The notes beneath the pieces were generated by a model. It was not told where the DNA came from and did not search any database. It saw only the letters and a program-made list of their open reading frames with translations. The translations under genes were made by a program, and so were the position numbers. DNA of 39,641 nt from Microthyrium microscopicum (taxonomy: Eukaryota). The DNA is taken from the NCBI GenBank assembly GCA_010405405.1, contig MU004231.1, forward strand, positions 3,597,486-3,637,126. The letters are read 5' to 3'. Below, piece by piece: positions 3,001 through 35,470 of this stretch; position 1 is the first letter of the stretch; each line of letters starts with the position of its first letter.

Positions 3001-3114
3001 TATCTTTAATTATTATTAGCTAAGTTAAGAGATATACTATAGTATATATATATTGTAAAAAAATTATTATATATTGCAAATTAGACTACGTATTATACTA
3101 GAAAAGTTATATTT

Positions 3115-3506
3115 AACTTATTATAAAGATATTAGATACATATAAGATAACTACGTACTTTATTAGAAATATTTTAAAAGTATTTAAAATATTTTAAACT
3201 TATTAAGTATATTATAGTTATTTTAAACTTATTATAAAAATATTAGATACGTATAAGATAATATATACTTTATTAGAAATATTATAAAACTATTTAAAAT
3301 ATTTTAAACTTATTAGATATATTATAGTTATTTAAAACTTATTATAAGGATATTAGATACGTATAAGATAATATATACTTTATTAGAAATATTATAAAAC
3401 TATTTAAAATATTTTAAACTTATTAAATATATCGTAGTTATTTAAAACTTATTATAAAAACATTAAATATATATAAAATAATATATACTTTATTAGAAAT
3501 ATTATA
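3115..3506. repeat. ~110-bp tandem repeat (at least 3.5 copies, runs into gap)
   Basis: tattagatac at 3130, 3241, 3351 and a degenerate copy at 3461. Confidence 0.9.
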
Positions 3507-4153: not shown

Positions 4154-7100
4154 TAAAAACTACCTTAAGCTTTATTTATAGATAGGTAGATTAAATACTT
4201 AAAATAATAATAGTTATTTAGGGGTTATTACTACATATAGAAATATTACTTACTAGTAACCTTTATTATATCTAAATATATCTAGTACCTAGATAAAGTA
4301 GTAATAATATTAAGAGTAAGTAAGATAAGATAAGATAATAGTATCTTTAATAGTATATTAGTTAACTATAATAATAAAAGTAATAGTAAGTAGTATATAA
4401 ATTAAGCTAAGTCTACGTATAACGCTCCTTATTATCATAAAACACTATTATATTTACTTTTATTCTACTAGTCTCTAGAACATAGATTATAATAGTAACT
4501 ATCGCCTTAGTATTATTATTAATTACAATATTACTAACGTCTATACTTAAAACTTCTATCTCTAATTCTACTCTACGCTTTAAGATACTACTTATTTTAT
4601 ATACTATATAATCCTTTATAATAAGGTCCTACGTATTTACTATGCTAAGAATAAGATATTACTCTTACTAGGCTATAAATAGCCTAGTTATTATTTTAAT
4701 TATATAGTGCTACTTACCCCTTTACATAATTAGTAAAGTTAAAGATTTATCTACTATTCCTAGTTTAATAGAGATTAATATTAAAGACTAGTTATAGTAT
4801 ATTAAAAAAGTCTTTTCTATTCTATACTACTTAAAGAATATTATTAACTTCTTTCTTTCTTAAATTATCTTTCCTATAGGAATAAGAGAGTTTTCTTTAA
4901 AAATTTCTATATCTAGTACTATTATATAACTATTAAATTAAGTAAGGATACTTAAGTAATATAGTAGAGGAAGAACTACCTTAAGCTCTATCTATAAGTA
5001 GATAGATTAAATACTTAGAGTAATAATTAGCACTTATAGTAGTAAATCTATTTAGTATATCTAATTATATTTATAGTATATTCTAAAAATTTTATATAAA
5101 GCCTTATAACCCTTAATACTATATATTATTTAAGGGTTATTACTACGTATAGGAACGTTACTTATTAGTAACCTTTATTATATTTAGATATATTTAGTAC
5201 CTAAATAAAGTAGTAATAATATTAAGAGTAAGTAAGATAATAGTACCTTTAATAATATATTAGTTAATTATAATAATAAGAGTAATAATAAGTAGTATAT
5301 AAATTAAGCTAGAAGTAGCCTAGTTATTATTTTAATTATATAGTACTACTTACCCTTTTACATAACTAGTAGAGTTAAAAATTTATTTACTATTCTTAAT
5401 TTAATAGAGATTAATATTAAAGATTAGTTATAGTATACTAAAAAAGTTTTTTTTGCTCTATACTACTTAAAGAGTACTATTAACTTTTTTTTTTCTTAAA
5501 TTATCTTTCCTATAGAAATAAGAGAGTTTTCTTTAAAAATTTCTATATCTAGTACTATTATATAGTCTATTAAGCTAAACTTAAGAAGCTTCTAGTAGCA
5601 TTTCTAACTCTAGTAGTTTATATATATATTAGATTTAAAGTCTAAAGAATTTACTAAGTAGAATATATTTCTAGTACAATCCTACTTAATAATAAGAAAA
5701 AATATTTAATATACTATAAGCCTTTATAAATGCCTTTAATAAGCTATTAAACTAAGTAAGGATACTTAAGTAATATAGTAAAAAAAAGACTACCTTAAGT
5801 TCTATCTATAAGTAAGTAGATTAAATACTTAGAGTAATAATAGTTATTTAAGAGTTATTACTACGTATAAGAACGTTACTTATTAGTAACCTCTATTATA
5901 TCTAGATATATCTAGTACCTAGATAAAATAGTAATAATATTAAGAGTAGATAAAGTAATAGCACCTTTAGTAGTATATTAATTAACTATAATAATAAGAG
6001 TAATAATAAATAGTATATAAATTAAGCTAAAAGTAGCCTAGTTATTATTTTAATTATATAGTACTACTTACTTCTTTACGTAACTAGTAAAGTTAGAGAT
6101 TTATCTACTATTCTTAGTCTAATAGAGATACTATTATATAGCTATTAAACTAAATAAAAATACTTAAGTAATATAGTAAAAGTATTAAGTAGGTAAATAT
6201 TTCCTTAATTATTTTAGTAGCGTTCTATATAAGCTCTTCTTCTAAGATAATAAAAGAGATTTCCTTATAATAGATATAGTTAAAGAACGTTATACGAAGC
6301 TAGGATTATATTTAAGAACTTAGTAGTTATTAAAATAATTACTAAGGAGTAATAACCTTTCCTTTCTAGTTAAGATAATACTATTCTTATATCTTACGCT
6401 TTATTAAGTAAGTAGTATATTACCTTTATAGTTAAATTAAGTAATTATATTAATAAATATATCTATACTCTTAACTAGTTAAAGAAGTAGCTAAAAACTA
6501 CCTTAAGCTTTATCTATAAGTAAATAGATTAAATACTTAGAGTAATAATAGTTATTTAAGAGTTATTACTATATATAGAAACGTTACTTACTAGTAACTT
6601 TTATTATATCTAGATATATTTAGTACCTAAATAAAGTAGTAACGATATTAAGAATAGGTAAGGTAATAGTATCTTTAGTAGTATATTAGTTAACTATAAT
6701 AATAAGAGTAATAGTAAATAGACTAGATTTTTTTAAATATTTCCTTAGATATTTTAGTAGCATCTTATATAAGCTCTTCCTTTAGGATAAAAAAAAGAGT
6801 TCTCTTATAATAGATATAGTTAAAGAACGCTATATAAAGCTAGGGTTAAAGATTTAGTATCTTTATAATTCTTATATTAGTAAGGACTTAGTAATCTAAT
6901 AAATATTATTAAGAAAAGTAGCTATCCTTAAGTTAATAGAAGTATACTAATTATTAAGGTAGAAAAGCCTATATTATAGTAGTAAGTATTTTCCTAGTCT
7001 AAAGCTAATAAATAAATTAGATAATAGAGAAGCTTCTATAAAGAAGAGTAGAATATCTAATAATATTAGAGTTATTAATTTACTAATATACTAAAAGTAG

Positions 7101-7520
7101 TTTAATTATAATACTATAAAGAATTCTTATAAGCTAAGTACTAGTTTTAGTAATAAAGTAATTAGAGAATTTTAAGACTCTAAAGCATCTATTAGTAAGT
7201 AATGCTTCTAGAATATATATTAGCTAATTATTAATAAATCTTATATATTTATAGGTTATACCTTCTAAGTTAAAAACTATAAAGGTTAGTTTATTAACTA
7301 GAGTAGTTAAAGAGTCTATATATTCTATACTCTTTATTACTAAGTCTATCTTTTATTAACTTTACTTTCCTTTTAAGTATTTAGCGTACGCTTTTATAAA
7401 GTTAAAGTATAAAACTAAGTAATTATATTAATAAATACGTCTATACTCTTAACTTATTAAAGAAGTAGCTAAAAACTACTTTAACTTTATTTATAAGTAG
7501 ATAGATTAGATACTTAGAGT
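4154..7520. repeat. Mosaic array of shuffled 60-280 bp modules
   Basis: Module A (taccttaag...gtatataaattaagct) starts at 4161, 4977, 5791, 6499 and partially at 7477. Module B (agcctagttattattttaattatatag) is at 4681, 5317, 6035. Module C is at ~6195 and ~6734; module D at ~6439 and ~7417. Confidence 0.9.
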
Positions 7521-7900: not shown

Positions 7901-8625
7901 TATAGATAATAGATAGTTATAGCTTATACTAAATATAGAAACTTTATATTAGTTCTTTAAGTATAAGATTAAAATAAAGTAGTAACTTCTTATTAAAGGA
8001 GTAGCTATTATTAATATTAGCTAAGCTATATATACTCTTTACTTATATAACTACCTAGCTAGCTTTATTCTTTTACTCTTTTAGATAAATTAGTTTTATA
8101 TAAATATAAAATAAGAACTAAGCTAATTTATATATATTAGTAGTACTATAATTACCTTAATAGAATATTATAAGCTTAGGTAATAGCCTACTAAGATAGA
8201 AAGCTACCTTACTAATATTAATATTAACTAATATATAGGAAGTTATAAGTTAAGTACTAGTATAGATAGTAAATAGTTATAGCTTATACTAAATATAGAA
8301 ACTTTATATTAGTTCCTTAAGTATAAAATTAAGGTTAGGTAGTAACTTCTTATTAAAGAAATAGCTATTATTAATATTAGCTAAGCTATATATACTCTTT
8401 ACTTATATAACTACTTAGCTAGCTTTATTCTTTTACTTTTTTAGATAGGTTAATTTTACATAAATATAAAATAAGAACTAAGCTAATCTATATATATTAG
8501 TAATACTATAATTACCCTAATAGGATATTATAAGCTTAGGTAGTAGTCTATTAAAGTAGAAAGCTATCTTACTAATATTAATATTAATTAATATATAGGA
8601 AGTTATAAGTTAAGTATTAGTATAG
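7901..8625. repeat. Two tandem copies of a 360-bp (120-codon) unit
   Basis: 7901-8260 aligns with 8261-8620 at exactly 360-bp offset; differences are mostly transitions. Confidence 0.92.
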
Positions 8626-8806
8626 TATCCTTAGAGAGCTAATAAGCTACTATTAAGATAAAGCTATTATAGATTAGCTCTAATAAATAGAAAGACTTTT
8701 TATAGTCTAATTATAGCTATGTTTACGTTAGATTAGTAAAAATAGTTAAAAAATATATTAAGAGGTTAAAAAAGAGTTAGCTAATTATTATAGCTAGTAT
8801 TAGATA

Positions 8807-9277: not shown

Positions 9278-9909
9278 AATATATATAGTCTATTATTAAT
9301 TTAAGAAAGTAAGAGTTACCTAGAATCTTATCTATTATATTTATTATAAAGAAAGAAATTATAAAGTAGATATATATTTTACGTAATTAATTTAAAAGAA
9401 CTAAGTAAGTATAGAAAGTAGAATAAAGAAAGAAAATAAGCTATTTATACTTAGCTATTAATCTTTCTTATTTTCTATATAAAGAGTATCTATAATATAA
9501 AAAAATAAAGTTTCTTTTACTTTATATATAAGGTTTAAAGTCTTAAGTAGTTATAAAGAAATATACTTTTTTAAGTATAGTAGTACTTTAGTATTATACT
9601 ATATAAAAGTTATTAAAATAACTTTAATAAGCGCTTTCTTTATATTTAAGCTAAGTAAAAAGTAAAATAAAAAAAAAGAGAGAAGGTTAAATTAAGTTAA
9701 AGCTAAAGGAAAGATTTAGAAAGAGTACTATTTTAACTAAGAAGAAAAGGTTATTATATCTTAGTAACTACTTTAATAATTACTAAATCTTTAAATACTT
9801 ACTATTCTAATATAGTTAAAAATAATCTTTACTTAGAGTTTATCTCCTTACTATTTTAACTTTTATATTCTCTAACTTAATAAGCCCTTTATATTTTACT
9901 ATAATAATT

Positions 9910-10170
9910 ATAGTAGCTATAGAGGTAAATTTTATAATAGTTAAAGTAGAGGTAGGTTTAATAAAAAAGGAAGTAGTAATTATAAAGGTAAATTTTATAG
10001 TAATTAAAGTAAAGGTAAGTTTAATAAAGAAGGAGATAATAGTTATAAAGGTAAATTTTATAGTAATTAAAGTAAAGATAAGTTTAATAAAGAAGGAAGT
10101 AGTAGCTATAAAGGTAAATTTTATAGTAGTTAATATAAAAGTAAGTTTAATAAAGAAGGAGGTAATAATT
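9910..10170 (-). repeat. 63-bp (21-codon) tandem repeat x4, Ser/Thr-rich on minus strand
   Basis: ggtaaatttta at 9924, 9987, 10050, 10113. De-RIP reading ~TTSSSVEPTSTSTTAESTSAA. Related degenerate copies at ~10350-10500. Confidence 0.85.
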
Positions 10171-11218
10171 ATTATTATTATTAATTATACTTCTTCTAGT
10201 ATTTACTTAGTAGTTCTAATAATAGCCTAGCTATATCTTTTATCTTTATCTTCTTCCTTTTTATTACTTTTAAACTTTAATATAATCCTACTACTTTATT
10301 TATAAAGCTAACTAAAATATTAGAAGCCTTAAGATATATAGAATATATAGTAAAAATAAATTCTATAGTAGTTAAGGTAATAATAGAGAAGAAGGTAGTA
10401 GTAGTAAAGATAAGTTTTATAGTAGTTAAGGTAAAGATATAAAAAAGCTAAGGTAGTAGCTATAGAGATAACTTTTATAGTAATAAAGATAAAGTAGTAT
10501 ATTAAGTATTACTATAATATCTTTAACTTTTCTTTATATAAAGTAGACCTTATAGAGAATAAAGGGTACTAAGTAGTAAATACTTAAAATACTTTTTTAG
10601 ACGTTCCTAGATTTTTAAGGTACTTTAGAAGTATAAGTAAGAAAAGGTAATATAGCTATATATAGTAGTAATAGCCTTTAGATATAGTATTCTTTAAGAA
10701 AGCTAGGTAGTAATAGCTTTCTTTTATAGTAATATATATTAAGTTAAAAGTATTACTTTTATACTAGATATAGCTCTTATACTAATAAAGAAGTTTAATA
10801 ATTTAATATTACTATAATTATTATTTTAAATAGATTAGTTAGAATATAGGTAGTAAAGCTAATTAAAGCTAGTTATAAAGCCTTACTTAAGTATCTTAAA
10901 GAGTAATAGTATTACTATTAACTTTATAAACTCTAACTTTATATTTTAGTAATATAGATCTATTATAGAATAATATAAGCTAAATAAATAGAGTAAGCGC
11001 GTAATTATTTTAGTTAAGGATACTCTTTAGTAATATATTAATTATTTATAATAATAAGAGTAATAGTAAGGAACTAGTTTTTAAGCAATAGGTTTAAGAT
11101 AAAGGTAATTTATTTAGAAATAACTAAGACTAATAAGTACGTAAGTAATAGTATAAGTAATAATAAATATTAAGGTAGAGTATAATAGGCGTTAAGTTAA
11201 TCTTTATTACTATTAAGA

Positions 11219-12779: not shown

Positions 12780-14660
12780 TAGTTTAGTTATAACTTTAGA
12801 GATATTTAGCCCTAAACCTATTAATAGTATTATCTAATATTCTTCTTTATTTAGTTACTAAAAGCTTTTATAATATTATTATTAAGCTATTAAAGAATAA
12901 TAACTTCTAAATCTTCTAAAAAAGCTCTTCTTATTAGCTATTAAAGATAAAAACTACTTTCCTCTACATTACTATTAATAAAAAGTTATAATTAAGCTTA
13001 TTACGCTAGTTCTATTACTTAAAGAATTAAACGCTTTCTAGTTAGTAGCTATTAAGTTTATTACTAAGAACTAGCTTTATTATAATAAATTAGGCTATAA
13101 AAAATTCTTTACTCTACTTATAGCTTTAGGTCTTAATATTATAATATATAATAAATACTTCTATTAAATATATATTTAGTATAAGAAAGCTAAATATACT
13201 AAGTAAGGTGCTTAGTTATTATATCTTTTTAATAATATAATATAAAAAGATACTTAAACTTTTAGAGTCTCTTATCTTTATTAATAGCTCTTATATCTTA
13301 TTTTAGGATTATTCTAAATAATAAATATTATCTCTTTAACGCGTATTAGAATATTACGATTCTAGACTAATAAGGTATAGTAACTATCTTAAAGATAAGG
13401 TTTTATAAGTTATACTTATACTAGCTATAAAGATAAATTAGTAGTATTATAATACTTATAAATTAATAATTAAACTAAATACTAGCTACTACTATATATA
13501 GTAAGCTATACTTTTTAAGTTTCTATCTTATACTAATATATTAGAAAATTAGTTATAAATATAGTTAATTAGTTCTATTATATCTATAGTATTAAGTAGA
13601 AGAAGTATTACTATCTATAATAGGATAAGAATTAATTAGTTACTAAAGTTAATATAATTATTAATTAAGAGCTAGCTAAAAAATAATAAGTAGTATTAGT
13701 AAAGTAGATTTAACGTATAAAAGAAGTAAGATAGGAGCTAATTAACTAATATTAATATACTTATTTATAATAACTTAAGAAGATTAGGTATTAATATTTA
13801 GAACGTACTATACTAAAAGAAACCTAGCTTTATACCTACTAGGACGTAAAGAATAGATTTAAAAGTTTTAACTATAAAGTTCTATTTACTTAAAGATAAA
13901 GAAATTAAAGATATTCTAATAAGACTATAAATTCTATTAAGTCTATATTAAACTCTTATCTCTACTTTTCTTAAATAGCGTATTATTTATACTTATATCT
14001 TATTCTTTCTTTCTATCTATTTAAAAAAAGATACCTTATATCTTTATATAATAACTATCTCCTTATTATAAGCTTTACTATTTATAGCTAAGAAGAGAAG
14101 ATTTCTACTATACTCTAACTAGACTATAATATAGTATATATTATATAGATAGCTATAGATTTAGTACTTTATAAATATTTTAATATATATTAAAATACTA
14201 CGTCTATACCTCTTTCTTTATTATTAGTATTAGTATTAATAGCCTAATTACTTTTAAAAGGACGCTAAAGCTTTACTTAAAGATCTAGTTTTTATATACT
14301 TATATAGTAATAACTTACTTATTTACTTTTAGGACTATGTTTTACTAAGAAAAGTCTAGTAATATAATATTTATAAGTTAGCTAGTAGTCTATTTAGTAG
14401 AACTAAGATTTTACTAATAAGTAGTATAAGAGTCTAAGTAGACTTTATACTTAAGTTTAGTTTAATTAGTTTCTAAGAAAGATTCTATATCTAAGTTTAA
14501 AATATTATTATTATTCTCTTCTAGCTTAAGGGTTAATTTAACTAGTATAATAGCTTTAAAGAGTTAAAGAGTAGTCTAGAATTCTAGGTATTTATAATTT
14601 ATATTTTTTAAATAGGAGTATACTTTAAATAAAGATATTAGGAGAGTTAAGTATAGTTTT
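12780..14660 (+). pseudogene. RIP-degraded ORF of unknown function, convergent with the transposase, possibly with intron(s)
   Basis: Plus frame reads as protein at 12841-13320 and 13561-13980 (e.g. ...ETWLYTYWDVKNGFEGFD...). Intron-like ctaat...tag near 13367-13380. Confidence 0.4.
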
Positions 14661-15149
14661 TAGTTATCTTAAAGACTATAGTATATAGTTTATAATAGAA
14701 TTAAATAAAAGATATAATAGTATTATAATAAGTAGTAGTAAAGCTATTAATTAACTAAGTAAGTTATTATAAATAAAGAAGGTTATTAGAAACTAAGATA
14801 ATAAAAATATATAATAAAGGTAAATAGTTACTATTTTAATTATTACTATAAGTAGTAGATAATTATTAAGTAATATTTAAGTCTAGTAACTAGATAAGCT
14901 CTTTATAAAAGCTTAAGATAAAGTATAGAGAAGATATATATATTAGAAGTAAGGTAAAGAAGTAAAATAAGTTTAGATTACTATAAGTACTAAAGAAAAA
15001 AGATTTAAAATTAATAGCTTATTATTTTATTTAAAGAATTATAAATTAAAAACTATTAAAAAGAATAGATAATTTTACTTCTTATATATATATTATTCTA
15101 TATAAATATATATTCCTAAAGTTTCTAAGTTAATTTATTTTATTATATT

Positions 15150-18100
15150 CTATATTATACTAACTATTATATTTAAGTCTATAATTAATACTAATAAAAT
15201 TAAATTACTTAGGAAATAATATTATAATAATAATAATAATACTTAGTAGTTTATAAAATATATAACTCTTAGGTAATAAAATATTTATTAGACCTTTATT
15301 TTACTATATATCTTTATTATTATTACTACTATCTTCTTTATTATTATTACTAGTCTTTTCTTTACTATTTTTACTAGTCTTTTATTTACCTTCTTTACTA
15401 CTATCTAGTTTATCTTCTTTATTTTCTACTTCTTTTCTATTATTACGTTTCGTTCTCTTTACCTTATTAGTAAGCTTCTTAAAATAAACTTTAATCTAAG
15501 CTTTATAAAGCTTTTTATTCTTTCTCTTTAGAGCCTTATATCTTACTATAGTTTTAGCCTTAGCTACCTTAATTCCTTATTTACTAAAGGTAACTAAGTT
15601 ATATATTCTAGTATAATTATTATAATTAAGGTATAGATTTAACTAATAGTAATTAAGATACTTTAAGTCTCTATAAAGAACTATATATATAATAGTTAAT
15701 AGTTTATTTAGTTTATATACTTTTAACTTTATAGCTAACTTAAATAATATAAGACTTAATAGCTTATTAAATATAAGTTTTATAGCTTTTTCTAAGATTA
15801 GTATATACTTTTAAATTAAAGCTATAAAAAATCTAGTATATCTATACTATAATTTAAAATTTCTTATTATTTAATCTATATTATATACTATATAAATAAT
15901 AAGTAGTTATATAGGAAGTTAACTTAAAAGACTAAAATTATTATTAAGCTCTTTCTTAAATATAGAATAGGCCTAAGCCTATATAAAGTCGCGTTACTAA
16001 TAGTTCTTAGTTAAGACTTTACTATACTATTAACTATTATCTTTACTTTTCTACTATTCCTATTTATAGTAAGTTATAAAGAGTTATATATTATTTTTAT
16101 TATTATCTATTATATAGGTTATGCTACTATATAGTATTATAATAAAGTAACTTAGCTAAAGAGTATTAAAATATAATACTTTATTAGAGTATATAAAGTC
16201 TAATCTATTATTAATAAGATTTTTATCTAAGTATATTTCTTTATTTTATATATGTAATAGTATTAGCTTTAAAAAAGACTAGCGCTTTTTAAGGTCTTTT
16301 TTATAATAATTAATTAACTAGCTATATAAATAACTCTTAAGGTTATTAAGCTTAGCCTATTTATTAACGTTCTTAGTAAAAAGTATACTAGATTTATAAA
16401 TGCCTTTATTATATAGCTTATCTATATAATATAATTAGAGTTATAAACTATATTTAGGTATACTTAATAGAATAATTATAGGATAAGTTTCTTTAAATAT
16501 AATCTTCTTCTTAGTAATATTATAAACTTAATAGTTATAGTTATTATTATTATTCTAAATTATATTCTTAATATAATTAGTAAGATAGTAGATTATTTAA
16601 ACGTACTAACTAGATTAAAAGTTAGTTTATTTTATTACTAGTATAGTATACTCTTAATATAACTTTTCTATAATACTAGAACTAGTTCTATTTATAGTGC
16701 TAAATATATAAATAGATAGTATAAGATAAATTAGGTTATAGAACTTAGGGAAATTAAGTCCTTTAAACCTAGTTTAAGAAGTCTTACGCTTATATATTAC
16801 TATTTTAGTATATTCTATAATTTATAAATAGACTTATATATATTTAAGTATATTCTTATTATATAACTTATAGCTAGAAAGTATAATAATATCTATTAAA
16901 GCTTTAATAAATTTTATTATAATTAGGTTCTTTAGAATTAAGAGTAGAGCTAAGGTAGCTATAAGTTACTTTAAAAGTGCTTATAATTCTAAGCTAGTCT
17001 TCTATTAAATATTATAGTAGCTTTAGACTATTCTTAGAAAGCTTAGATAAATAGGATACTATAGAAACCTATAGTTAATTATAAACTTTACTTTTGCGCT
17101 AAATATAGACTTCTTCTTTTTTCTTTCTTACTTAGTCTTTAGTATATTACTATTCTTTCTCTTAGTCTTTAGCATTTTATAGGTATAGGTCTTTTATATA
17201 GCTTTATTATTCTTTATTTTAGCTACTAGTACTATAGATATTATTAGTACTCTCTTTTTTAAAATAATTTAGGTTATCTAGTTTATTACTTACTTAACTA
17301 GTTTATTTAAAAAGAATATATATAGTAAATTAAAAATAATTACTATATAAATATTTAATAAAGAATAATTCTAAGTAAAATTATAAATTTTATAGATATA
17401 GTCTTTATTTTTAGTATTATTAATAGTAATAAGCTACTTAATATACTCTCTTTTTTAATTAGTATAATAAAGTACTTTCTACTTTAATATATTCTTTTAT
17501 AAAGTTATATAAGTCTAATAGGCCTATTTGCTAGTAAGGTCTTACTAATATAGTTATAGTACTAAGTAAATAAAATAGTAATATTTAGACTAAATACTTA
17601 TAATTATAATAAGCTTTTTATAATCTATATTTATATAAATAAGAATTAAAAGACACTTTTAAAACTAGTTATTAATAGTTACTATAACGTAACTACTTTT
17701 AAGGACTATTCTAAGTTCTATATTTTATTAGTAAATAGCTCTATAATACTTAAATACGTAGTATTAAATTTTTAAATATAATATTTATAGCGTTATAAAA
17801 TATCTTAAGTTTATTATTAATATCTATACCTTTTAGCCTAGGAAGTACTATAATAAAGAGAAATCCTAGTCTTTTTATAGCTTTTCTAATACTTCCTAAT
17901 AGATTAAAAATAGTTATATAGTAAGCCTATATATAGTTATTACTACGTTATTTAGATATTATAGTCTTATCTAACTCTTAGTAAATAAAAATAAGCATAA
18001 TACCTAAATTAACCTTATTTTATAATTCTTACTATCTTTTTACTAATTAAGTATTAGTATAGATATACTTACTATCTTTATCTTTTTATATTATAGACTT

Positions 18101-19277
18101 AAAGTAGAGGTTTTTAATAAAAGGCCTATAGAAGATAAAGAATTTAATAACCTCTAAAATACTTTAAAAGTATATCTTAACTTTGCTACCTAGAAGATTT
18201 TTAATACCTTTTATCTTATTATATAGTAGCTTTTTAAGTATTACTTTCTATTAGCTAGGTATAAAGCCTTTAAGGTTATTAATGTTTTCTATTAGCAATT
18301 TATAATTCTTTATTTTTTAACTAAGTAAGTTACGTATTTTACTTTTAAAAGCTATTTCTTAGAATAACTTATTTATCTTATTCTTTAATATATTACTAGA
18401 AACTACTTAATTAGTAAACTTTAGTTCTTTTTTTAGTTAACTCTATAGCTTTACTCTTTTATAAAGCTTTTCTCTTCCTAAATAATAATATTAGTATTCT
18501 ATCTTAATAGTATCTTAGAGTAGTAGCTTATACTTATTAATTTAGTTATAGCTTTTATTAGTTCTATAGGCTAGTATAAATATACTTATTAAATGTTCTA
18601 GATTTTATTATAAGTATATAATAACTTTATTAATTATATATTATATACTACTCTTAGACTTTTAAGACTTATTAGCCTTATCTATCTTATTTTATAAATT
18701 ATATTTATACTATATTAGAGTAGTAACTCTTTTTATAGCTTTAAGGGTAGCTAAAGATAAAAATATAGTAAAAGGCGTAATTATTTTATCTTCTATTATA
18801 AGCATTTTAGACGTAGTATAGTTATAACTAAAATAAGTAGTAAATCTTATACTAATAGAAGAACTATTTATAGAGAGTTCTTTTACTAGAGTTTTTATTA
18901 CTAGTATTAATTTTTATACTTAATTAAAAGGCTTTTAGAAGTAATTATAAGGGTTTATAGTAAAGAGGAACTATATACTATTTAGAAGACTTAATATATC
19001 TATATTTAAAAAGATTAGTCTATAAGAATAGTAATATAACTTATTTAGGTTAAATATATACTAAGAGACTAAAACGTATAAGTTAAATATATCTATATTT
19101 AATTACCTCTTTTTATTATTATACGTAATACTAGAAAGGTTACGTTAGTATATTAATTTCTATACCTATTTCGTTTTTATTAATTTTTAAAGATATAGGT
19201 ATATCTTTAGTATATAAGTAGTAAATCTAGTATTAAATTTATACTAGTAATAACTAACGTTTAATTTTACTTAGTAT
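15150..19277 (-). pseudogene. Plavaka-family DDE transposase (PF18759-like), RIP-inactivated
   Basis: Ordered de-RIP motifs: MYFRSILEVIKFFIFHRPF; KDEDGKRIYTD; MLIPIYxGSDKT (D at 17971-17969); AWAYYMTIxNL; CLPILIYTNADYEEL (D at 17625-17623); CPICLVP; NIHAAIIFDLLH; NFPKFHNLTHL..SIRMFGTADGTSSGITEKLH (E at 16668-16666); KRTN. A 40-nt GT..CTAAT..TAG intron (17718-17757) restores the frame. C-terminal tail is charged and Q/R-rich. Confidence 0.88.
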
Positions 19278-19400: not shown

Positions 19401-21889
19401 ATAGCTAGTATTAAGACTAAGTAGAGGTACTAGCTAATCTTATATAACTAATAAGTTATAATATTATATTAGAAATACGTTACGTAACTTTATATTATTA
19501 ATTACTAGCTTAGTAAGTTAACTTTTCTAGTAATAGTACTATTTTATTTATTTTTCTAGTCTAACCTCCTTATATATCCTTTTTTATTAAATTTTTCTAC
19601 TTATATAACTTCTTTATTCTAAACCCTTTTTCTATTTAATACTAACTATTATATTATCTAAGTTAGTTAATTAATTAGCTAAATAAACCTTACTTTAAAC
19701 TTAAACCTTCTCGCTATTCTTTTCTTTATTATTATTCCTTATTACTAATCTTTACTAACTTTACTTTCTTTATTAGCTTTATTAGCTTTAAATTTTTTAT
19801 TCTTAGGTTTAAAACTATAAAGTAAGGTTAGTCTTATAAAATCTCTAATTACCTTTAATTCTTTAAGTATAATAGTTTTAATCTCTTTGCGTATATTTAG
19901 CTCTTTTTTATAATAAGAAACTACTTTATTAAAGTTAGGAATATTAAGTTTCTTTAGATTCTAATAGAAGTAATTATTAGTAAATAGTATATACTATATA
20001 TAGCTATTATTAATAAAATGCTTTAATAATTTATTAAGTATAGATTATTTAAACTCCTTCTATTTCTTAGCACTAGGGGCTATTATAGTACTATAAAGCT
20101 TTAAGTTATTAAAGAATAAAGATAAGCGGCCCTAAGATGCTATAGTATTTATTTATAGGTTTTCTATAAGGAAACTAGTGTAATCTTTTTAAACGAAATT
20201 AATAAAATTTTAATTACGCTTAATATTAGAGCTATTATTATAGGTAGTTATTAGAACCTAGCTAAATTATAAAGATATATCTTAATAGTCTTATTAGGTA
20301 TATATATAATTATTCTAAATATATATAGTAACCTATTTAAGTAGCTAACCTTTAGTTTTAGTATAAAGGCTAGTTTATATAAGGTAAAGAGTAATAATTA
20401 TAGTATTAACGCCTTTTAATTATATTTATAGTAGAAGTTTAATCTATATAAAGGCTATAATATAAGCGTTATAAGTATTAGAACTTAAACTAGTAATATC
20501 CTTTTTAACTTTATTATCTCTAATATTTATAAATATTATAAATAGCGTGTCTTTTCTACGTTCTAAGGATAAAAAGAGCTAGTTTATAATATATTATAGT
20601 TAGTTAAATTTAGGATTATTATTATTAGTATATTTAAGAATTTTATAGCCTATATTATTAAGGAGATTATAGTATAATAAATTAAATCTAAATACTTATT
20701 TTAGTATAGTTTAGCTAAAGCTATTTACTATAGCGTTATATATTAATAGTATTTAAGAACTATTATAAAATATAGCTTTTTTATATTTAAGATTATAGAT
20801 AGGTCTAGGCTAGAATAAATCTCTAGTTTATATAATTATTTAAGGTCTATATAAAGATATAATAGCTATTATCTATAGTTTATATAATACTGCTACTTTA
20901 TTATAAATCTATAAGTTAATATTTATAAAATTTACTTAGAAAAGCTCTTATAAAGCGTTATAGTTTATAAAACTAAGAAGAGTAATTATTAATTATAAAT
21001 AATATTACTTTATATCTAGTAGTAGTTTACTATAATTAGCGCTCTCTAACTTTAAAAGCTTCTTCTTACTATAATACTTTTTATTAAGAATTTAGAAGTT
21101 AAAAGTATAATTAAGTAACTTTTTAGTAGCTATATTTATATTATATTCTTACTTTCTTATTACTAAGTTAATTACGTTAATTATTCTACTAGCTTAACTT
21201 ATAAATTCCTTAAATAAGTATTTAAGACGTTTAATATAATAGTTATAGATATTTTTAAAGTCTTAATATTTAGTATTTACGCAAAGTTGTTATAAGTAGT
21301 AAGTACTATGCTATTTAGTAAGTAATACTATTTTAGTATTTAGAATATTAGTATTATAGTTATCTATATTATTTATATTTTACTATTACGTACTAGGACC
21401 TTAATTTTAGTAGACTTAGGTTTATACCTCTTTTAATTTCTTTAAGATAATAGATTTCTTTATCTTAATTAAGTATTCTTAGATAGTAAAAAATTACAAA
21501 AGGTTTATAGGATTAACTTCTATATAGACATTTATATACTTAGTAATAAGGTTATCTAATTATATATTTATAGTATATATAGCTAAAATCTTTATCTTAA
21601 AATTAGGATAGAATATTATAAAAGTAATTAATATTACTATTATAGCTTTTATAGTTTTAGTTTTATTATATTCTAGCTTAGTATAGTAGATATTAAGTCT
21701 ACCCTTATTACCTTTTAAGAGAATAATATTAATAAACTCTTTTTAATCCTTATAAAGAGCCTTTATAATACTAATCTGTTCTACCTTTTTTATAAAATTT
21801 TAAATTTCTTTTAAAGTAATTCTAAAGTTAGTCTTTAGTAATTATGCGGAAGTAGCTATGCCTAGTCTTATAAAAGTGCTTAGTGACTA

Positions 21890-21928
21890 GTACTAATTAT
21901 TATTAATATTAGTATTATTAATATTAGT

Positions 21929-21959
<31 letters not shown>

Positions 21960-22059
21960 GTATTACTATTATTAGTATTATTAGTATTTTTTATAGACGT
22001 AATCTCGTTATCTAACTATTTATTAGAATTAGAAATATCTTTAGGTATGTCTTTATAGA

Positions 22060-22094
<35 letters not shown>

Positions 22095-22095
22095 G
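21890..22095. repeat. (TTA)n/(TAG)-type trinucleotide low-complexity tract (poly-Asn/Asp codons on minus strand)
   Basis: Long tta runs at ~21895-21985 and 22060-22093, within the large ORF. Confidence 0.8.
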
Positions 22096-22109
22096 CGTCG
22101 TTAGCTATA

Positions 22110-22205
22110 TTTAATTACTAACCTTATTCGTTATTAGCCGCTTTTAATTACTAACTCTATTCGTTATTAGCTACTTTTAATTACTAACCTTATTTACTAT
22201 TAGCT
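22110..22205 (-). repeat. 33-bp (11-codon) tandem repeat x3
   Basis: ttaattacta at 22111, 22144, 22177. Confidence 0.85.
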
Positions 22206-22259
22206 TTAGTAACCTTTAGCTTAGTCTATTAATCTTAAGCTTAAGACTTTATAGAGGAG

Positions 22260-22565
22260 AAGGTACTGTCGTTAGTAGAATAAAGGAGCGTTACTATAGT
22301 AGTATCTAAGGATTCTATATTAACATTATCTTAGACGAAGGGGAAGAAAGAATAAAAAATACTATTATTATTAAGATAAAGAGGCGCTACTATAGTAGTA
22401 TCTAGGGATTCTATATTAACGTTATCTTAGATAAAGGAGTAAAGAGGCTAAGAGGTATTATTATTAGTAGAATAAAGAGGCACTACTATAGTAGTATCTA
22501 GGGATTTTATATTAATATTATCTTAGACGGAAGAGAAGGAAGAATAAGAGGTACTATTATTATTA
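22260..22565 (-). repeat. 96-bp (32-codon) tandem repeat x3
   Basis: tactatagtagtatc at 22292, 22388, 22484. De-RIP reading ~NDSTSHSSFSSVQDNVDVESLDTTTAAPLHST. Confidence 0.88.
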
Positions 22566-25184
22566 GCTTTAAATTCCTATTTAAACTAAGATTTAGTTAT
22601 ATAGTTAGATAAATCTAGATTAAGTAGCTTATTAATTAGCTTTTATAAAGTAGAACTACTACTTATTTCCTTTAAAGTTTCTTTAGTCTAACTAGTTAAA
22701 GGTTTTAATATATTATTTTTAATATTACTAGAGGATAAGCTACCTAATAAAGTATTCTTTTATATCTTATTAACCTTTATAGTTAACTCTTTTAACGCGT
22801 TAGTATTTATTAATACTTCTTTAGTATATTTTAATATAATACTAAACTCTATCTTTCTAAGGAGTAAAAGTAAAGTATAAATAGTAAAAATCTTCTTTAA
22901 TAAAGGCTAACGTTCTAAAGAGTCTAAATATAAGCTAAGTACTATAGTAAAGTAGTAATTTAGGTTATATTTTTTTTATCTTAACTATACCTAGTTAAGA
23001 TTATTTATTTAGTATATAATAAGCTTATCTAAATTATATATATATATCTTAACCTTTAGCCTTTTTAGTTTAAGGAAGGCCTTATATAGGTTCTTAATTA
23101 ATTAGTTATAGTTTAGAGGAATAATAACTTCTTTAGGGATTTAAAATAAAGAGAATTAAGTATTATTAGTATATCTATTATTAAGTATAATAGAAGGATA
23201 ATATATAATTATAAGTACGTTATAGGTAGCTTAAATATTATAGTTCTAGTTAATAACTTTAGTAGTAAATTAAGAACCTTTAAGTCTAGCTCCTAGCTTA
23301 AGTTAGATTATATAGACGTTATTTTCTTAAAAATAAGGATATTCGTATTTATTTACTATAATATAGAAATTAAGGCTTATTAAGAATTTATAGTCTTTAC
23401 TTCTTAGTATTCTAGTAGTATATAATATAGTATTATAGGAAGCCTTATTCTACTTATATGCCTAATAAAGCTATTTTGCTAAATCTATACTCTAGGCTAT
23501 AAATAGATATAGGACTAAAGAATAAACTATATATAATAAACTTATAATTTTATTATTTTTTATTTTTATAAGATTATTATAATTATCTAGGAGGGTAATA
23601 TAACTCTTCTATAAGCTAAAGACGCTATTTATAAATAGATAATTAATATTAATAAAAATAATATCTAGATTAGTTTATATATCTTAAGAAATTAGTTAAG
23701 GAAGATTCTTTTTTATAAATATAGCTAGGTTAGTATTAACCTTAAAGAACTAGAAGACTATAGGGTACTAATTCTAAATAGTATATTAAAAATAATAAAG
23801 AAGTAAGTTAAATTTAGTATCTTTATTACTAACTATTAAATTACTAGTTATAGTAGAGTAGACTTAAAAAGGATTATTAAATAGATTAGGGTATATCTTA
23901 ATAGTAAGTATAATTATATAGCCTATAGCTAGTATGCTTCTATAGTATTTAACGTCTTAATTAATCTTATAAGCTAACTAGATAAGTTATTTCTTTAGGA
24001 TAACTATAGGAAACTTAGTAACTATCTAGTCTATCTTTTTCTTCTTTATAATTAGATTATTTAGTAAGAAGTAGATAGTTTTAATTATTAAAGTTATAAT
24101 ATTTTTCTATATATTATTTTTATTCTTATTAACTTTAAAAGTATTTCTCTTATCTTTAAGATATAGGTAGATAGTTAAGATTAATATAAACTAAGTAACT
24201 TATTTATTATTCTTTATTATAAAGAATTACGCTTTAATATTAAAAACTATAGCTTATTAATACTTCTTTTTTAATCTATATATATATTTAGGCTTACTAG
24301 TAGTACTATTTTAATTAACTTTATTATTAATACTATTACCTAAGTATTAATTTACTTTATTAACTAGATTATCTTTACTAAGAGCTACCTTTAGACCTTT
24401 TTTTAATATATCTTCTAGATAAGGTTTACCTAAATATACTTATAAGCTATAAATTTACTAGATTAAGGGCTTACTATTAGATAGATTTACTATAAGATTA
24501 TAGATAGTATATTAAGAATTCTTAAAATCTATTTAAGGTATTAGTATAAGGGTATATTTAGAGGTTTCTAGACTATTCTAAATTTTTACTTTATTTTTAT
24601 TTTTAGTCTTAGAATTTTATTTACTTAAGTTTAGAAATATAGGTAAAGAATTCTTTTTAGCTAGGTAGGTAAAGATAGCTATAGAATCTAGTCTATATAA
24701 GTAATTAGCTAAGAATAAGAAAATAAATTTCTTTAAACTTATATTTTAATAGCCTTAGAATTATTTAGCTTACTATTCTTATAAGGAGTATAAGTTTTAT
24801 ACTAATTAAAAAGAAGTTTTAAGATTATAATAACTAAATAGCTAGAGATCTTAATAAGAATTTTATCTTTACCTATATCTTAGCTATAGATTTAGCTATT
24901 ATAATTATATACTAATCGCTAAGTATATAAAGTATTATAAGTAGCTATACTTATAATAGATAAAGTAAGAGCTAAGGAAGAGATAAAAGATATAAAGGAT
25001 TTAGGTAGTATTTTCTTTAAGGAAGAAGAAGTATTAAGAAGAGAAGATAAATAATAGTAATAAAAGTAGTAACTTACTTATTATATTAAAATCTAAAGGC
25101 GTAATTACTAAAAGTTAGCTATTTAACCTAAACTTTAGATTATTAAGTTATACTATCTATAAAAGGATAAACTTAAGGAATTAT

Positions 25185-27550: not shown

Positions 27551-28699
27551 ATATATATAATTAAAAAAGAAAAAGCCTATTTTAAAAAAATACTATAAAA
27601 CCTAATAGTTCTTATTTACTTTTTAAGAAACTAACGCTTAGAATAGTAAAGACCTTAATATAATTATATTAGTATTTACTAAGGACTCCTTATAAAAATA
27701 GGTTATACTAGACCTAAAAGATATATATAAATTAAGCCTCTTTAACTTATTTAAGATAAATATAAATATTTATAAATATATAGTTAAGATTAGTATAGAG
27801 TACTTTAAAAATATAATAAGCTTAAAGTTAGACCTATTTAAAAGTCTAAATATAATTTATAGTATAAGTTAAGTATAAGATAATTAAACTATTTTAATAA
27901 GTTTAAATATATACAATTTTGTTAAAGTTACTTATAATAATCTCTATAAGCTAAGAAAGATTACTTTTAAAGTTACTTAGGTTAAATCTCTTTTAAAGAA
28001 AACTTATACTAGTAAATAAAAATATAAGGCCTTAGTTACTTTTACTCTAAGCTCTTCTCTTTTACTTTAAAATAAATATAATAAGAAATCTTATACTTAA
28101 CCTTATATAAATCCCTAGCTAACTACTTAACCTATCTCTACTACTAAATTATTAATGTATAAACGTAATATATATAAAGATCTTATTTTTAATTAATTTA
28201 ATAAAGATAGTAAGGTTACTAAAGATAATAAAGATAGTAAGGTTACTAAAGATAATAAAGATAGCTTAGATAAGAATTTTAAAAATAGCTTAGTTAAGAA
28301 TTCTAAAATAGAGTTAAATAGTAATCTAAATAATTCTAAAGAGAAAGACTTAGAATTTCTACTAGTATCGCCTAGTAGAATAAAGTAAAAGTATAATAAT
28401 AATAAAAATAATATAAAAGGAGTTAGTAGTAGCTATAATCTTTTAGTATTTATAAATAAAAAGAAATTTAAGAATAAATCTAGTTCTTATAATTATAAAA
28501 AATAATAGACTTTAGTATAAATAAGCCTATTTAGTAAGAAAAATAAAAGTAAATCTAAATATAAAGAGGTAAAGGTAAAATTAACTTTAATCTTAGAAGT
28601 AATTAATAAGAATAGTAGCTAAGAATATTATACTTCTCTAAGCTTACTAGTCTAAATATTATAGCCTTAGAATGTTATTACTAATATAGAGATAAGGAA

Positions 28700-29290
28700 C
28701 GTATAATAAGATTAAGTATTACTTCTAAATAGCGTTAAACTTATAAATACTATTATTATATCTTCTTAAGGACTTAAAGAGCGTATTATTAAGTTAGAAA
28801 TAGAGAGTATATAATAAAATTAAGCACTACTTCTAGATAGCATTAGATTTATAGATACTACTACTATATCTTCTTAAGGACTTAAAAAGCTTATTATTAA
28901 GCTAAAGATAAAGAGCGTATAATAAGATTAAGTACTACTTTTAGATAGTACTAGACCTATAGATACTACTATTATATCTTCTTAAAAACTTAAAGAGCGC
29001 GTTATTAAGCTAGAGATAGAAAGCATATAATAAGATTAAGTACTACTTTTAGATAGTACTAGACCTATAAATACTATTACTATATTTTCTTAAGAACTTA
29101 AAGAGTATATTATTAAGCTAGAGATAAGAAGTATATAATAAGATTAAGTACTACTTCTAGATAGTACTAGATCTATAGATACTACTACTATATTTTCTTA
29201 AGAACTTAAAGAGCGTATTATTAAGCTAGAGATAGAGAATATATAATAAGATTAAGTATTGCCTCTAAATAGTAATAGACTTATATAGTC
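28700..29290 (+). repeat. 108-bp (36-codon) tandem repeat, ~5.5 copies, in frame within the SNF2 ORF
   Basis: taagattaag-like motif at 28707, 28815, 28923, 29031, 29139, 29247. De-RIP reading ~QQDQAPLPDSTGPADTTTASSQGPEERVVEPETESV. Confidence 0.92.
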
Positions 29291-32200
29291 TTAAAGCCTT
29301 AAGCCTTTTACTAATAATATATAGATAGGAGATAGTAAAGTATAAGCGCTAATTTCTATAAATATTAATTATCTATTTAAAATATATTATTTATAGAGAC
29401 CTAATTCTACTACTCTAGATTATATTATATTACTCTTTACCTTATAAAAATTAAGTTATCTAATAATAGCTAAATTTCCTTTTAATTACTTAAGAAAATA
29501 CTATAGCTTTCTAAGTATACTAGCTTCTTTAACTATATTATTTTCTTAAAATAAGCTATTTTCTTTTAGCTATACTAAACCTTTAAGTTTCTCTAAGTAC
29601 GTTATTAATTTTATTAACGTTATAGATATTATTAATCTTACTATTAATAACTTAGAATTATTACTATTTATAGTAAATATTTTTATAAATATTAAAAACT
29701 TAACTAAGGAAGATATTACTATACTAGATAACTCTATAGCTATTAAAGTAATTAATTTAACTATAGAAAAGATTACTACGCTATCTAAACTTTAATTACT
29801 AGACTTACTATTTTTTTTATAGAATAAAGTAAATATATTATATAGTATAGAAGTAAAATACTTTTAAGAGTTATAACCTTATAAAAATAAGTAATAATAT
29901 AACTATAATAATAAGGATAGTAATATAAGAATTAATATATAGTAAGCTTATAAGAAATAGATTAAACTTTATTTATCTAATATATATAAACTAATACTTA
30001 ATATTATTAGCTTTTATATATTAAAGACTTTTAAAAATAAATATATCTAAGAATAAACTAGTTTCTTTATTAACTACTTTAACTATACTAAATATAGATC
30101 TATTATACTTAAGTCTTTTATAATAAGTAAAGCTTTATATACTAAAACTTTATAAGCTAAACTATTTTATAATATATATATAGAATATAGAGAGTCTAAA
30201 ATAGTTAAAGATAAGGATTTAAAAGCTTTCTTTATTATAAGCTTCTATATAGAACTATTATAGAGTAAAACTTATAAGTACTTAATACTTAAAGACTAGA
30301 GAGAGATATATATATTCTTTAACTATAAAGATAAGAATAATATATTAGATTTTATTATTTCTAGATTTAAAGTTAATATTTAAATTTATTAAGCTATTAG
30401 AGTAATAATTATATATAAGTATATTATCTTTATATAAAGCCTCTATATTATAAACGTTCTAAGCTTAGAGAAGACTATTTAGATATTAATTACTATTTAA
30501 ATAAATAGTTAATAGACTAAAAGTATAGTAATATATATAAAAAAGTAACACCTTATAGAAGAAAAGAAACCTAAGCTTTTTAAGAAATATTTATTAAACG
30601 TTTAGGTCCTTAGTTATTAAGGCCCTAAGAATAAAAAAAAAGGTCCTTATACGTAGTTAAGAAGTCTTAACTAATCTATAATATACTATTACTCTAAGAA
30701 ATTATTAGCATAGTTAAAATCTACTATAACTTATATTAACTCTAAAAACTATTAGTATAATACTCTTACTATTAGTATAAACTATATATAAATAATTATA
30801 TCTATAATCTTAGTTTAATTAGATAAATAGAAAAAGGTAATTAATACCTTAAAATATAAAAGTAAGCCTAACTAGGTATTTATCCTCTATGTTAACTATT
30901 TAAGTATAAAACCTAAATTTATATTCCTAAATAAAGTTTTCTATATACGTAGACTTTTTATTAATTTTAAAACTAATTTTAGAATACTTAAGTAGACTAG
31001 TATTATTATATTAATAATATTAGGTTTATATATATTCTAAGTCTTATAACTAATTATAAAACTCTTATGAGCATAGTTAAAAGAATAGAAAACTAGATAT
31101 TATAAAACTCTAGAATTTAAGAACTATTTTTATATTAATATAGAATTAGTAGTAAATAGAGGTAAATACTTACGTAATTAAAAATACTTTATAATTAGAG
31201 TCTTAGTCTTAGATAAGTTTTATAAATATTAAATATTAAATAACTTAACTTATTCTAATATTAATAAAGAAACCTATATACCTAGTTATATACTATTAGA
31301 GTACTATTATAGTATATAGTCTAGAGCTACTATATTAAGTTAATCTAGGATATATTATAATACTATAGTAAGCTAACTAAACCTAATTACTTACTTAGTA
31401 AATATATAATATATTTACTTCTCTAATACTAATAAAAACATTAGAGAGTTTCTTAAATAGGAATTAAAAAAAGATTAGGTAATCTTTACTAATAATTATA
31501 TATTATTTACTCCTCTATTACTTAATACTATTTCTAGTTAAATTACTATACTTATTATGAAAGATATAAGATTACATAAGTATTCTAATAAAAGAAAAGA
31601 GAAATAGCTTATAAGAGAATAAGCCTAAGTAAGCACTATTTTAGCTAGTATATATATCTTATTTAAACTCTACTATATAATAAATATAGAGCTTTTTAGT
31701 TAAAAGTATATTATACTACCTTTAAATAAAATAAGGCTTATTATTATTAATATAATAAACCTAGAAGTAATATAGCTTATAGATAAGCTTAATAAATATA
31801 TAGTAGCGTAAATAAATAAACTAAGAATAACTACTATTAATAACTTTAGTACTTAGTGTAAAAGTAAACTATATTAAGCTAAATAGATATAAGCTAGGCT
31901 AGCTAACTATATAGTTTACTAAACCTCTATTAAGATTATATATTATAGATTTATTATTAAGGTGCCCTATCTATTAATATTAAAATAGGTAAAGAAAATT
32001 AAAGAATAGGCTAAAGATAATCTCTATTATATATTAGTAGGAATTAATAGTAGCCTATTTCTAAAGCCTAACTCTAAGAAACTAGCTAAGCCTAAGAATA
32101 ATCTCTTTATTAAAGAAGCTTCTTAGTTTTTAAAGATAAGTGCTTAAATATAATACGTAGTAGAGGTTATTAAAAAGATCTATATTAATCTAGAAACGTA

Positions 32201-34208: not shown

Positions 34209-34720
34209 ATAGGCTTTATTTAGATATATACTTTAATATATATCTATTCTAGTTATAGTAACCTATTTCTTTTATATCTCTTATTAAGATTTACTTAGGT
34301 AAGTACTACTATGCTTTAATTAGACCTACTTAGAGTACTCTAGGCTAATTTTTAAGGAGTCTAAGAAAAAATAAAGTAATACTTAAGATATAAATAAAAT
34401 TAAGAGTAAGAACTATAATTCTTTAGAATAATTAAGTATAGACTAATTATTCTATAAATATAGAGTTATAGCTACGTAATTATCTACTTTATTAAAAGTA
34501 GATTTATTATATTTTATATCTTTACTTAAAGACTAAGAATGTAAAGAAATTAGAGAACGTAAAGAAGGTAAAGAAGTACGTAAAGAAGGCTATAAAGAAG
34601 GCTATAAAGAAGGCTTAGTTAAAGGAGAAGGCTAAGGTAGAAAAAGTTACTAACTTATTAGAGAAGACTATACTTAAAAATAAGGTTAAGGTAATAGCTA
34701 AAGAGGCTAAGAAGGCCTAA
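34209..34720 (+). pseudogene. Small 3-exon gene (~130 aa): putative CxxC..CxxC knuckle plus Lys/Ala-rich basic tail
   Basis: Introns 34299-34356 (gtaagt..gctaat..aag) and 34406-34463 (gtaaga..actaat..tag) splice in frame to ...KNVKKSENVKKVEKYAKKAAKKAAKKA... The Cys residues are inferred from tat<tgt. Confidence 0.6.
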
Positions 34721-35339: not shown

Positions 35340-35470
35340 ATAAGAAGAAAGAGAAAAAAGAAAAGATTATAAGTAAAAAGAATAAAGAATAAAAAGAGAA
35401 GAGAGAAGAGAAAAAAAAATAAGTAGAATAGAAAGTAAAAGAAAAAGAGATATAGTAAATAGATATAAAA
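35340..35470. repeat. Purine-rich (A/G) low-complexity tract
   Basis: aagaagaaagagaaaaaagaaaag... over ~130 bp. Confidence 0.7.

Follow-up and report, generated by a model that had tools for sequence, protein, structure and literature searches.

A probable giant PlavakaB-like DNA transposon, killed by repeat-induced point mutation, with pieces of host Argonaute and RNA-dependent RNA polymerase genes in Microthyrium microscopicum

What kind of element does a mutated transposase gene in AT-rich DNA of the ascomycete Microthyrium microscopicum belong to, and what did that element carry? The question is raised by positions 15150 to 19277 of a 39,641-bp stretch of contig MU004231.1 (assembly GCA_010405405.1, positions 3,597,486 to 3,637,126; hereafter the window, to which all positions without a contig label refer), which a sequence-only reading had taken for a Plavaka transposase. 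The window is fungal DNA saturated with repeat-induced point mutation (RIP), having a GC content of about 19% and hardly any CpA and TpG, and 10,060 of the 10,282 variable columns (97.8%) among eight aligned copies of the element described here are C/T or A/G transitions. Very probably the flagged region is a two-exon transposase gene that RIP has killed, belonging to a giant PlavakaB-like cut-and-paste DNA transposon (CMCT clade) in a RIP-competent ascomycete. The transposase relic by itself is of an ordinary, known kind and ascomycete Plavakas are already on record; what is new is a bounded element of 43 to 45 kb with repeated captures from a qde-2-like Argonaute gene and an RNA-dependent RNA polymerase (RdRP) gene.

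PF18759 (Plavaka) was the sole Pfam match of the region, in one of six frames with stops read as X (20.6 bits, E = 3e-4; the gathering cut-off is 26.3 bits). The core of exon 1 matched this family in all seven genomic copies; the copy on contig C7 was best (37.3 bits, E = 2.5e-9) and is the only one above the cut-off, the other six scoring below it. Exon 2 matched PF18759 in none of the seven, and in a profile-profile comparison it matched intact Plavakas (93.9%, E = 1.6e-7). When spliced, the copies scored 20.7 to 69.4 bits against a profile of 29 intact homologs, for which two wrong frames and 20 codon shuffles, used as controls, gave no match. A search of 1.84 billion proteins with an exon-1 profile returned 26 matches at E up to 1e-3, and the four homologs that were scanned (exon-1 and unnamed) scored 87 to 244 bits on PF18759. 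The Plavaka assignment is upheld.

Three acidic codons had been proposed as catalytic, and gat 17971, gat 17625 and gaa 16668 do lie at these positions on the minus strand; the two frames they occupy have to be joined by a +1 intron. The first D (17969..17971, the SDKT column) is retained in five of eight copies, the second D (17623..17625, the ADY column) in four and the E (16666..16668, the ERLH/EAHH column) in seven. Their counterparts in an intact Plavaka protein of Parastagonospora nodorum are D310, D408 and E675, aligned for D17971 through exon-1 homologs, in which it is the invariant SDKT aspartate, and for D17625 and E16668 through full-length proteins. A 56-row alignment, counted over the rows that have a residue, shows D at the first of these columns in all 48, D at the second in 31 of 32 and E at the third in all 34. 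An AlphaFold model of the intact P. nodorum homolog (pLDDT 83.8) places the first at a strand end, the second behind a later strand and the third on a helix, and its best Foldseek matches are RAG1 (E = 7.6e-10), RAGL and Transib. A D-D-E triad in a predicted RNase H fold is thus supported by alignment and model, and the candidate residues stand. Since D, D and E are kept in five, four and seven of eight copies, survival of all three codons in the window copy is luck.

The C(2)C and H(3)H positions of exon 2 align to invariant Cys and His columns of the homologs. One of eight copies has the second Cys; Tyr stands at the other Cys and at both His positions, as RIP would give. An N-terminal CxxC had also been suggested and is no more than compatible with RIP: both Cys codons (the second at 19243) read Tyr in eight of eight copies. 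An N-terminal CxxC..H is present in 10 of 13 homologs checked.

Exon 1 (17770..19276, minus strand) holds the putative zinc finger near 19250, the first D and 37 in-frame stops. Exon 2 (15301..17717, minus strand) holds the second D, the C(2)C and H(3)H positions, the E, a basic and then acidic tail, and 60 in-frame stops. Between them lies a 52-nt phase-1 intron (17718..17769, minus strand) with a CTAA-type branch site and an AG acceptor in seven of eight copies. The sequence-only reading had instead placed a minimal 40-nt intron at 17718-17757, which likewise bridges the frames and shows GT..AG in the window copy. However, the dinucleotide at 17757 is GC in five of eight copies, GT in two and AT in one, so the GT there was made by RIP, while the donor at 17769 is GT in seven of eight copies and mutated in the window copy. 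The longer intron outscores the shorter on the homolog profile in all eight copies. It leaves 42 residues between an FH motif and the second D, against 46 (four extra) with the 40-nt intron; 13 of 15 measurable homologs have 42, the others 43 and 45, and none 46. Similarity breaks off at the junction corresponding to 17769 in 10 homologs aligned by eye, and 24 of 26 homologs stop no more than 10 residues from where the exon-1 profile ends (a partly circular count, as nine of them built the profile). A true 40-nt intron is thus very improbable, and the phase-1 intron appears to be conserved across this Plavaka lineage.

The 3' limit of the transposase frame is most likely the double stop 15306-15301, not 15150 as earlier drawn; 15135-15294 is captured host DNA. 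Its C-terminal tail, described before as rich in Q and R, is K/R/E-rich and then acidic. Nor is the full-length transposase recoverable by reversing RIP, as had been claimed. In every copy with sequence there, 36 of the 37 stops in exon 1 and 56 of the 60 in exon 2 (92 of 97 in total) are fixed, so that reversal from this genome cannot reopen the gene; the frames stay closed after the eight copies are pooled.

The limits of the whole element are given by its copies. The region has six further long matches (> 5 kb) in the genome at 90 to 92% identity, plus fragments. Eight fetched copies all start at the position equivalent to window 3051, and every copy with a readable right end stops at the equivalent of G000:C2:3643257 (genome, contig, position). 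The window element runs from 3051 past the window end to that point, 42,722 bp in all. A 20-bp terminal inverted repeat (3051..3070, plus strand), CATCG...CGATG in the least mutated copies, is preceded by the left 2-bp target-site duplication (TSD; TA, 3049..3050), whose right partner lies past the window after G000:C2:3643257, and is followed by subterminal 110-bp tandem repeats (3115..3506). A genome-wide search for the terminal pattern gave 44 matches, against none for the reversed pattern used as control. At least eight giants have both ends, seven of 42.7 to 45.0 kb and one of 49.4 kb; copy C2a, whose right end is not readable, is not among them. A further seven end pairs enclose mini-derivatives of 872 to 874 bp.

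The giants are flanked by TA in five cases and GA in two, with one AC/GC pair explicable by RIP, and the minis by TA in five and by TT and AA (seven of seven exact). Exact 2-bp TSDs are therefore present in 14 of 15 two-ended elements, the chance of a match being 0.126 for each, and the 3-bp flanks differ in all five minis checked. The large size and the host-like genes inside could also be explained if the block were a RIP-hit segmental duplication or an endogenous gene cluster and no transposon at all. This is extremely improbable, as dispersed copies on several contigs have identical ends, the termini are inverted, the TSDs are exact in 14 of 15 elements and the minis share the ends of the giants.

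Additional copies, broken or with one end only, were seen on C13, C16, C6, C11, C4 (1.70 Mb), C12 (1.44 Mb), C30, C42 and C44; several of them lie where a contig ends, and the true copy number is above eight. The minis lie in G000 at C2:2669742, C2:3458426, C3:13040, C3:2842057, C5:11262, C7:713711 and C14:53128; their interiors are merely about 70 to 83% like the giant ends and may stem from a related family, and some are less hit by RIP. The insertion site of the window element is another RIP-hit repeat of 97- to 98-bp tandem units (window 600-1440), which resumes beyond the right end and also adjoins the C2a copy.

Transversions occupy only 40 of 29,991 columns among the copies. These few transversions, together with the 97.8% of transitions, indicate a recent burst followed by RIP. 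At sites of known ancestral state, 95% of CpA and 81% of CpG are mutated. Only 16 of 251 CpC and 16 of 312 CpT sites are mutated in all copies, so that amplification of an element already killed by RIP is not required. These counts are nevertheless higher than a model of uniform, independent mutation predicts, and an early round of RIP may have been shared by the copies.

Which Plavaka group is involved? PlavakaB is described with CATCA..TGATG termini and a 2- or 3-bp TSD and PlavakaA with TGT..ACA termini (PMC12730594; published systems are compared here from excerpts of the cited accounts). The element is like PlavakaB in its PF18759 transposase, D-D-E, CAT..ATG ends and 2-bp TSD (PMC12730594). 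PlavakaB also has C(2)C and H(3-4)H (PMC12730594), motifs whose candidate positions in the element mostly read Tyr. It differs in host, size and cargo: PlavakaB is reported from Agaricomycotina with TET/JBP cargo and one family of about 9.9 kb (PMC12730594), whereas the element is of an ascomycete, 43 to 45 kb long, with helicase-type open reading frames (ORFs) and captured host-gene pieces, and no TET/JBP was recognised in it.

In a quick tree of 50 rows, built without P0129 and P0130, 17 basidiomycete proteins form a separate clade (SH-aLRT 99). The element lies outside it among unnamed and ascomycete proteins, on a long, composition-biased branch, and the tree contained no sequences labelled PlavakaA or PlavakaB. 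A recent transfer from a basidiomycete, which was considered, is unsupported by this tree. Such a branch outside the basidiomycete clade, and the Plavaka-like transposases of rust EnSpm families (PMC12730594), would also suit a fungal EnSpm/CACTA element or another CMCT lineage with a Plavaka-like transposase. EnSpm elements, however, have CAC..GTG ends and 3-bp TSDs (PMC12730594), against CAT..ATG and 2 bp here, and PF18759 is the sole Pfam match of exon 1 and scores 87 to 244 bits in the four homologs, which makes that placement very unlikely.

Several observations weigh against the PlavakaB-like assignment. On its own the window copy is sub-threshold for PF18759 (20.6 to 22.4 bits), and a genome-wide PF18759 search matched nowhere, its controls being equally silent, so that it is uninformative. 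The H(3)H histidines read Tyr in all copies, and a catalytic role of D17971, D17625 and E16668 is deduced from alignment. The fifth terminal base is G, compared with A in published PlavakaB (four of five bases agree; PMC12730594). An active copy was looked for in the genome and none was found.

A Plavaka in a RIP genome had been thought notable, a point that carries little weight: both P. nodorum and Ciborinia have annotated proteins with PF18759, and Tuber Plavaka families are published (PMC12581995). The Tuber families resemble the element in their ascomycete host, 2-bp TSD and CAT-type ends (CATAC in Tuber; PMC12581995). RIP in Tuber is described as moderately low (PMC12730594, section 4.2).

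The element has taken up host DNA. Seven intact host loci of normal GC content (41 to 61%) match parts of it at 63 to 77% identity, amounting to about 7.4 kb of the 45-kb C7 copy. Differences are almost all from host C/G to element T/A; one 482-bp example shows 126 of RIP type, none in reverse and four transversions. As a control, 70 kb of DNA of normal GC content was put through a RIP-aware scan and did not match the element anywhere. Left of the transposase, unrelated pieces abut in a mosaic: part of an IBR-domain (RBR ligase-like) gene (12915..13814, plus strand; donor G000:C15:608081-608975), DNA of an ORF next to a MIF4G-like gene (13800..14107, minus strand; donor G000:C6:855329-855681), DNA adjoining the 3' end of a chitin synthase gene (14172..15134, plus strand; donor G000:C14:501849-502836) and a second C15 piece, outside the transposase (15135..15294, plus strand; donor G000:C15 609125-609283). 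The IBR piece aligns contiguously across a host exon gap, which suggests capture of DNA and not of mRNA. A block from a host tandem array with short Cys-rich ORFs lies at 33121..35776 (plus strand; donor G000:C6:1998732-2001393). A further donor (G000:C10:1291915-1292244), an intact ORF with no Pfam match, was captured where the window arm has an N gap.

The remaining two donors are silencing genes, and their pieces lie in the left arm. An Argonaute piece with the Piwi domain (4412..4677, plus strand, sense) comes from a QDE-2-like host gene and is young, with two to three non-RIP differences in 266 bp. Another, around linker 1 (7966..8806, minus strand, antisense on the plus strand; donor G000:C5:1867171-1867655), is a tandem duplicate with a 360-bp period and equally young (four to five in 485 bp). 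The Argonaute 5' end, with start codon and RGG-rich exon (9891..10172, plus strand), is amplified as a 63-bp tandem array and is older (8 to 13 in 126 bp). Two more older Argonaute pieces are visible in other copies, where the window copy has N gaps. From the RdRP gene on C10 come a 5' coding piece (6934..7412, minus strand, antisense on the plus strand; donor G000:C10:676912-677392) and a 73-bp piece of its 3' part (6456..6528, minus strand), which is amplified in the arm, with three copies in the C7 element.

By RIP-aware scan the element holds five Argonaute stretches (1,686 bp including internal copies) and two RdRP stretches (698 bp). Non-RIP divergence is about 1% in two of the Argonaute stretches and 7 to 10% in three; they occur in both orientations, two are tandemly amplified and one 41-bp host stretch was taken twice. 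The donor Argonaute has ArgoN, L1, L2, Mid and Piwi domains and its best PDB match is Neurospora QDE-2 (E = 2.5e-95), while the paralog on C9 is unlike QDE-2 (these two were compared). A Piwi match above the Pfam cut-off (34.2 bits) is found inside the C7 copy itself. Partial loci of two other Argonautes, two other RdRPs, two Dicer-like and two RNase III genes had no match in the element. The captured host genes are without RIP damage, the observed/expected ratio of CpA+TpG for Argonaute being 1.10 (captured) and 1.17 (uncaptured). Two other organisms have the same stretch of Argonaute, in its ancestral C/G states, in their runs, as expected if the element took it from the host. Matches to the arm in runs X5 and X6 are the Argonaute pieces and a few of less than 45 bp, which says nothing about absence of the arm.

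Among other observations on these sequences, run X5 has an Argonaute contig in which the distance between two anchors is 95 nt less than in the host gene, as splicing of a transcript would produce. The left arm (4154-7521, 9711-9798) consists of shuffled direct repeats of 100 to 900 bp, and one 88-bp unit recurs inverted and could form double-stranded RNA in a long transcript. The host array at G000:C6:1997400-2003000 has at least seven short ORFs with a WPRxCPLCQDRxCxxLCPYL-type motif and then a K/E-rich tail; three ORFs were scanned, none above the Pfam cut-off, and three units were captured by the element. Weak donor matches were seen at C4:1950004 and C17:44081. Donor candidates at C3:2896385 (RIP-type repeat DNA) and at C12:1.33 and 1.37 Mb (element fragments) were rejected.

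Why should pieces of silencing genes recur in this arm? It is well known that CACTA-like elements and Helitrons capture DNA. There is about an even chance that the pieces reflect neutral, Pack-type capture, in which gap repair after excision would have copied accessible DNA and RNA interference (RNAi) genes would recur because they were induced or nearby during element activity. The abutting of unrelated donors (C15, C6, C14, C15) fits this, as does the fact that most pieces are short and out of context. Neutral capture nevertheless needs an extra bias for repeated capture from one Argonaute and from an RdRP on another contig, and must also explain the amplification of these pieces inside the arm.

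A somewhat less probable, though substantial, possibility is that selection kept the pieces of Argonaute and RdRP as decoys against silencing, whereby element transcripts or small interfering RNAs would have turned host RNAi on its own qde-2-like and RdRP mRNAs. The two divergence classes, both orientations and tandem amplification of the five Argonaute stretches argue for this, as do the stretch taken twice and the choice of the QDE-2-like paralog and not that on C9. Core RNAi genes number eight in this genome (three Argonaute, three RdRP and two Dicer-like) and account for two of the seven donors; the chance of such donors is about 2e-5 by a post-hoc estimate of the author's that was not computed by a tool. 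There is also precedent in Drosophila telomeric elements (PMC13534243), in which eight of nine capture events involve piRNA (Piwi-interacting RNA) genes that are targeted by element piRNAs (PMC13534243). Those retrotransposons, with fragments of nxf2, piwi and aub, show the same repeated capture from the Argonaute family and amplification inside the element (PMC13534243). They differ in being animal retrotransposons with piRNA evidence (PMC13534243), whereas this is a dead fungal DNA transposon that took RdRP too and is known from DNA alone.

Other points tell against the decoys. The other five of seven donors are unrelated, with no known RNAi link, and RIP killed every copy found regardless. 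After RIP the pieces are 63 to 83% identical to the host, around or below the 79 to 82% at which there is almost no targeting in Drosophila (PMC13534243). The donor search, moreover, was incomplete, being word-based with 13 to 45 candidates per query. That some other cause retained the silencing-gene pieces is unlikely.

The life of the element can be pictured as follows. A RAG1/Transib-like DDE enzyme would have cut out the element after binding its 20-bp ends and integrated it through a 2-bp stagger, as is typical of the CMCT family, and through the shared ends it would also have moved the 0.87-kb non-autonomous minis in trans. Before the recent burst, host DNA would have accumulated at the DNA level by Pack-type capture, including the repeated QDE-2-like Argonaute and RdRP pieces of the left arm. 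After the burst, RIP would have struck each copy, mostly independently.

Long protein-coding segments, located by a codon model, make up further cargo. A dead ORF of about 1,650 codons (19748..24670, minus strand) is marked by coding signal and a motif chain: five of six superfamily 1 (SF1, Upf1-like) helicase motifs are chained in one frame, against a best of two in 60 shuffled rounds, the motifs being picked after the ORF had been seen. It had no match in Pfam, PDB or a protein database (the last searched by helicase alignment), and from the motifs an SF1 helicase of the Upf1 type is probable in its C-terminal half. A second long dead ORF (27564..33014, plus strand) has coding signal; its SNF2 motif chain was no better than the shuffled null and it had no match in Pfam (PF00176 and PF00271 included) or PDB, both weak tests on RIP-saturated DNA. 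A coding-like segment with 60-bp repeats lies at 38693..39457 (minus strand). Seven cargo segments of the C7 copy gave no Pfam match, the PDB searches with the two long ORFs gave a single chance match to a ribosomal protein, and neither ORF has an un-RIPed host source in this genome.

Starships have a tyrosine-recombinase captain and asymmetric ends. The element differs in its symmetric inverted repeats and 2-bp TSDs, and no such captain was seen in the subset of frames scanned. Precisely bounded and carrying cargo, it is a DNA transposon of a filamentous ascomycete, probably not a Starship, and roughly double the length of the bounded giant Plavakas described in the excerpts compared. Large Plavakas with accessory genes are known, like this one, from the red alga Bostrychia (10.1101/2025.02.11.637652) and from Amoebidium (10.1101/2024.01.08.574619), at 17 to 19 kb with clusters of up to 50 kb (10.1101/2025.02.11.637652, 10.1101/2024.01.08.574619). 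These are non-fungal and their cargo differs, comprising methylase/SET, 2-oxoglutarate (2OG)-oxygenase and tyrosine recombinases (10.1101/2025.02.11.637652, 10.1101/2024.01.08.574619); the excerpts of both accounts contain no silencing-gene fragments (10.1101/2025.02.11.637652, 10.1101/2024.01.08.574619).

A further relative may be X3X3R8 of P. nodorum, a 26-kb, RIP-hit, multi-copy block with SNF2-like helicases that was published as an endogenous gene cluster (PMC3017866). The matches listed first for it are SNOG_09186 and SNOG_01370 (PMC3017866). Over 480 residues both agree letter for letter with the C-terminal half of a full-length Plavaka transposase, which makes X3X3R8 a probable giant Plavaka that carries helicases and has open frames for the transposase. 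It differs from the element in carrying a ubiquitin-conjugating enzyme (PMC3017866). A literature search found the term X3X3R8 in PMC3017866 alone. Re-reading this published repeat as a probable giant Plavaka with open frames makes the family testable.

That a fungal cut-and-paste transposon evolved an anti-quelling counter-defence by repeatedly capturing and amplifying qde-2-like and RdRP sequences, in convergence with the TART/aub strategy of Drosophila and within an overlooked, giant, helicase-carrying ascomycete Plavaka lineage that includes X3X3R8 and has a conserved intron, can be proposed tentatively. If the captures were selected, this would be a fungal transposon that turned RNAi against its host's own silencing genes and may have blunted the RNA-silencing defence. 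A search of the Creative Commons literature in PMC and of bioRxiv found no case of a fungal transposon turning RNAi on its host's own genes.

In P. nodorum, gene models by the dozen (P0054-P0128), annotated as hypothetical, are partly RIP-eroded copies of one Plavaka transposase, and they are accompanied by a seemingly intact form of 1,015 amino acids.

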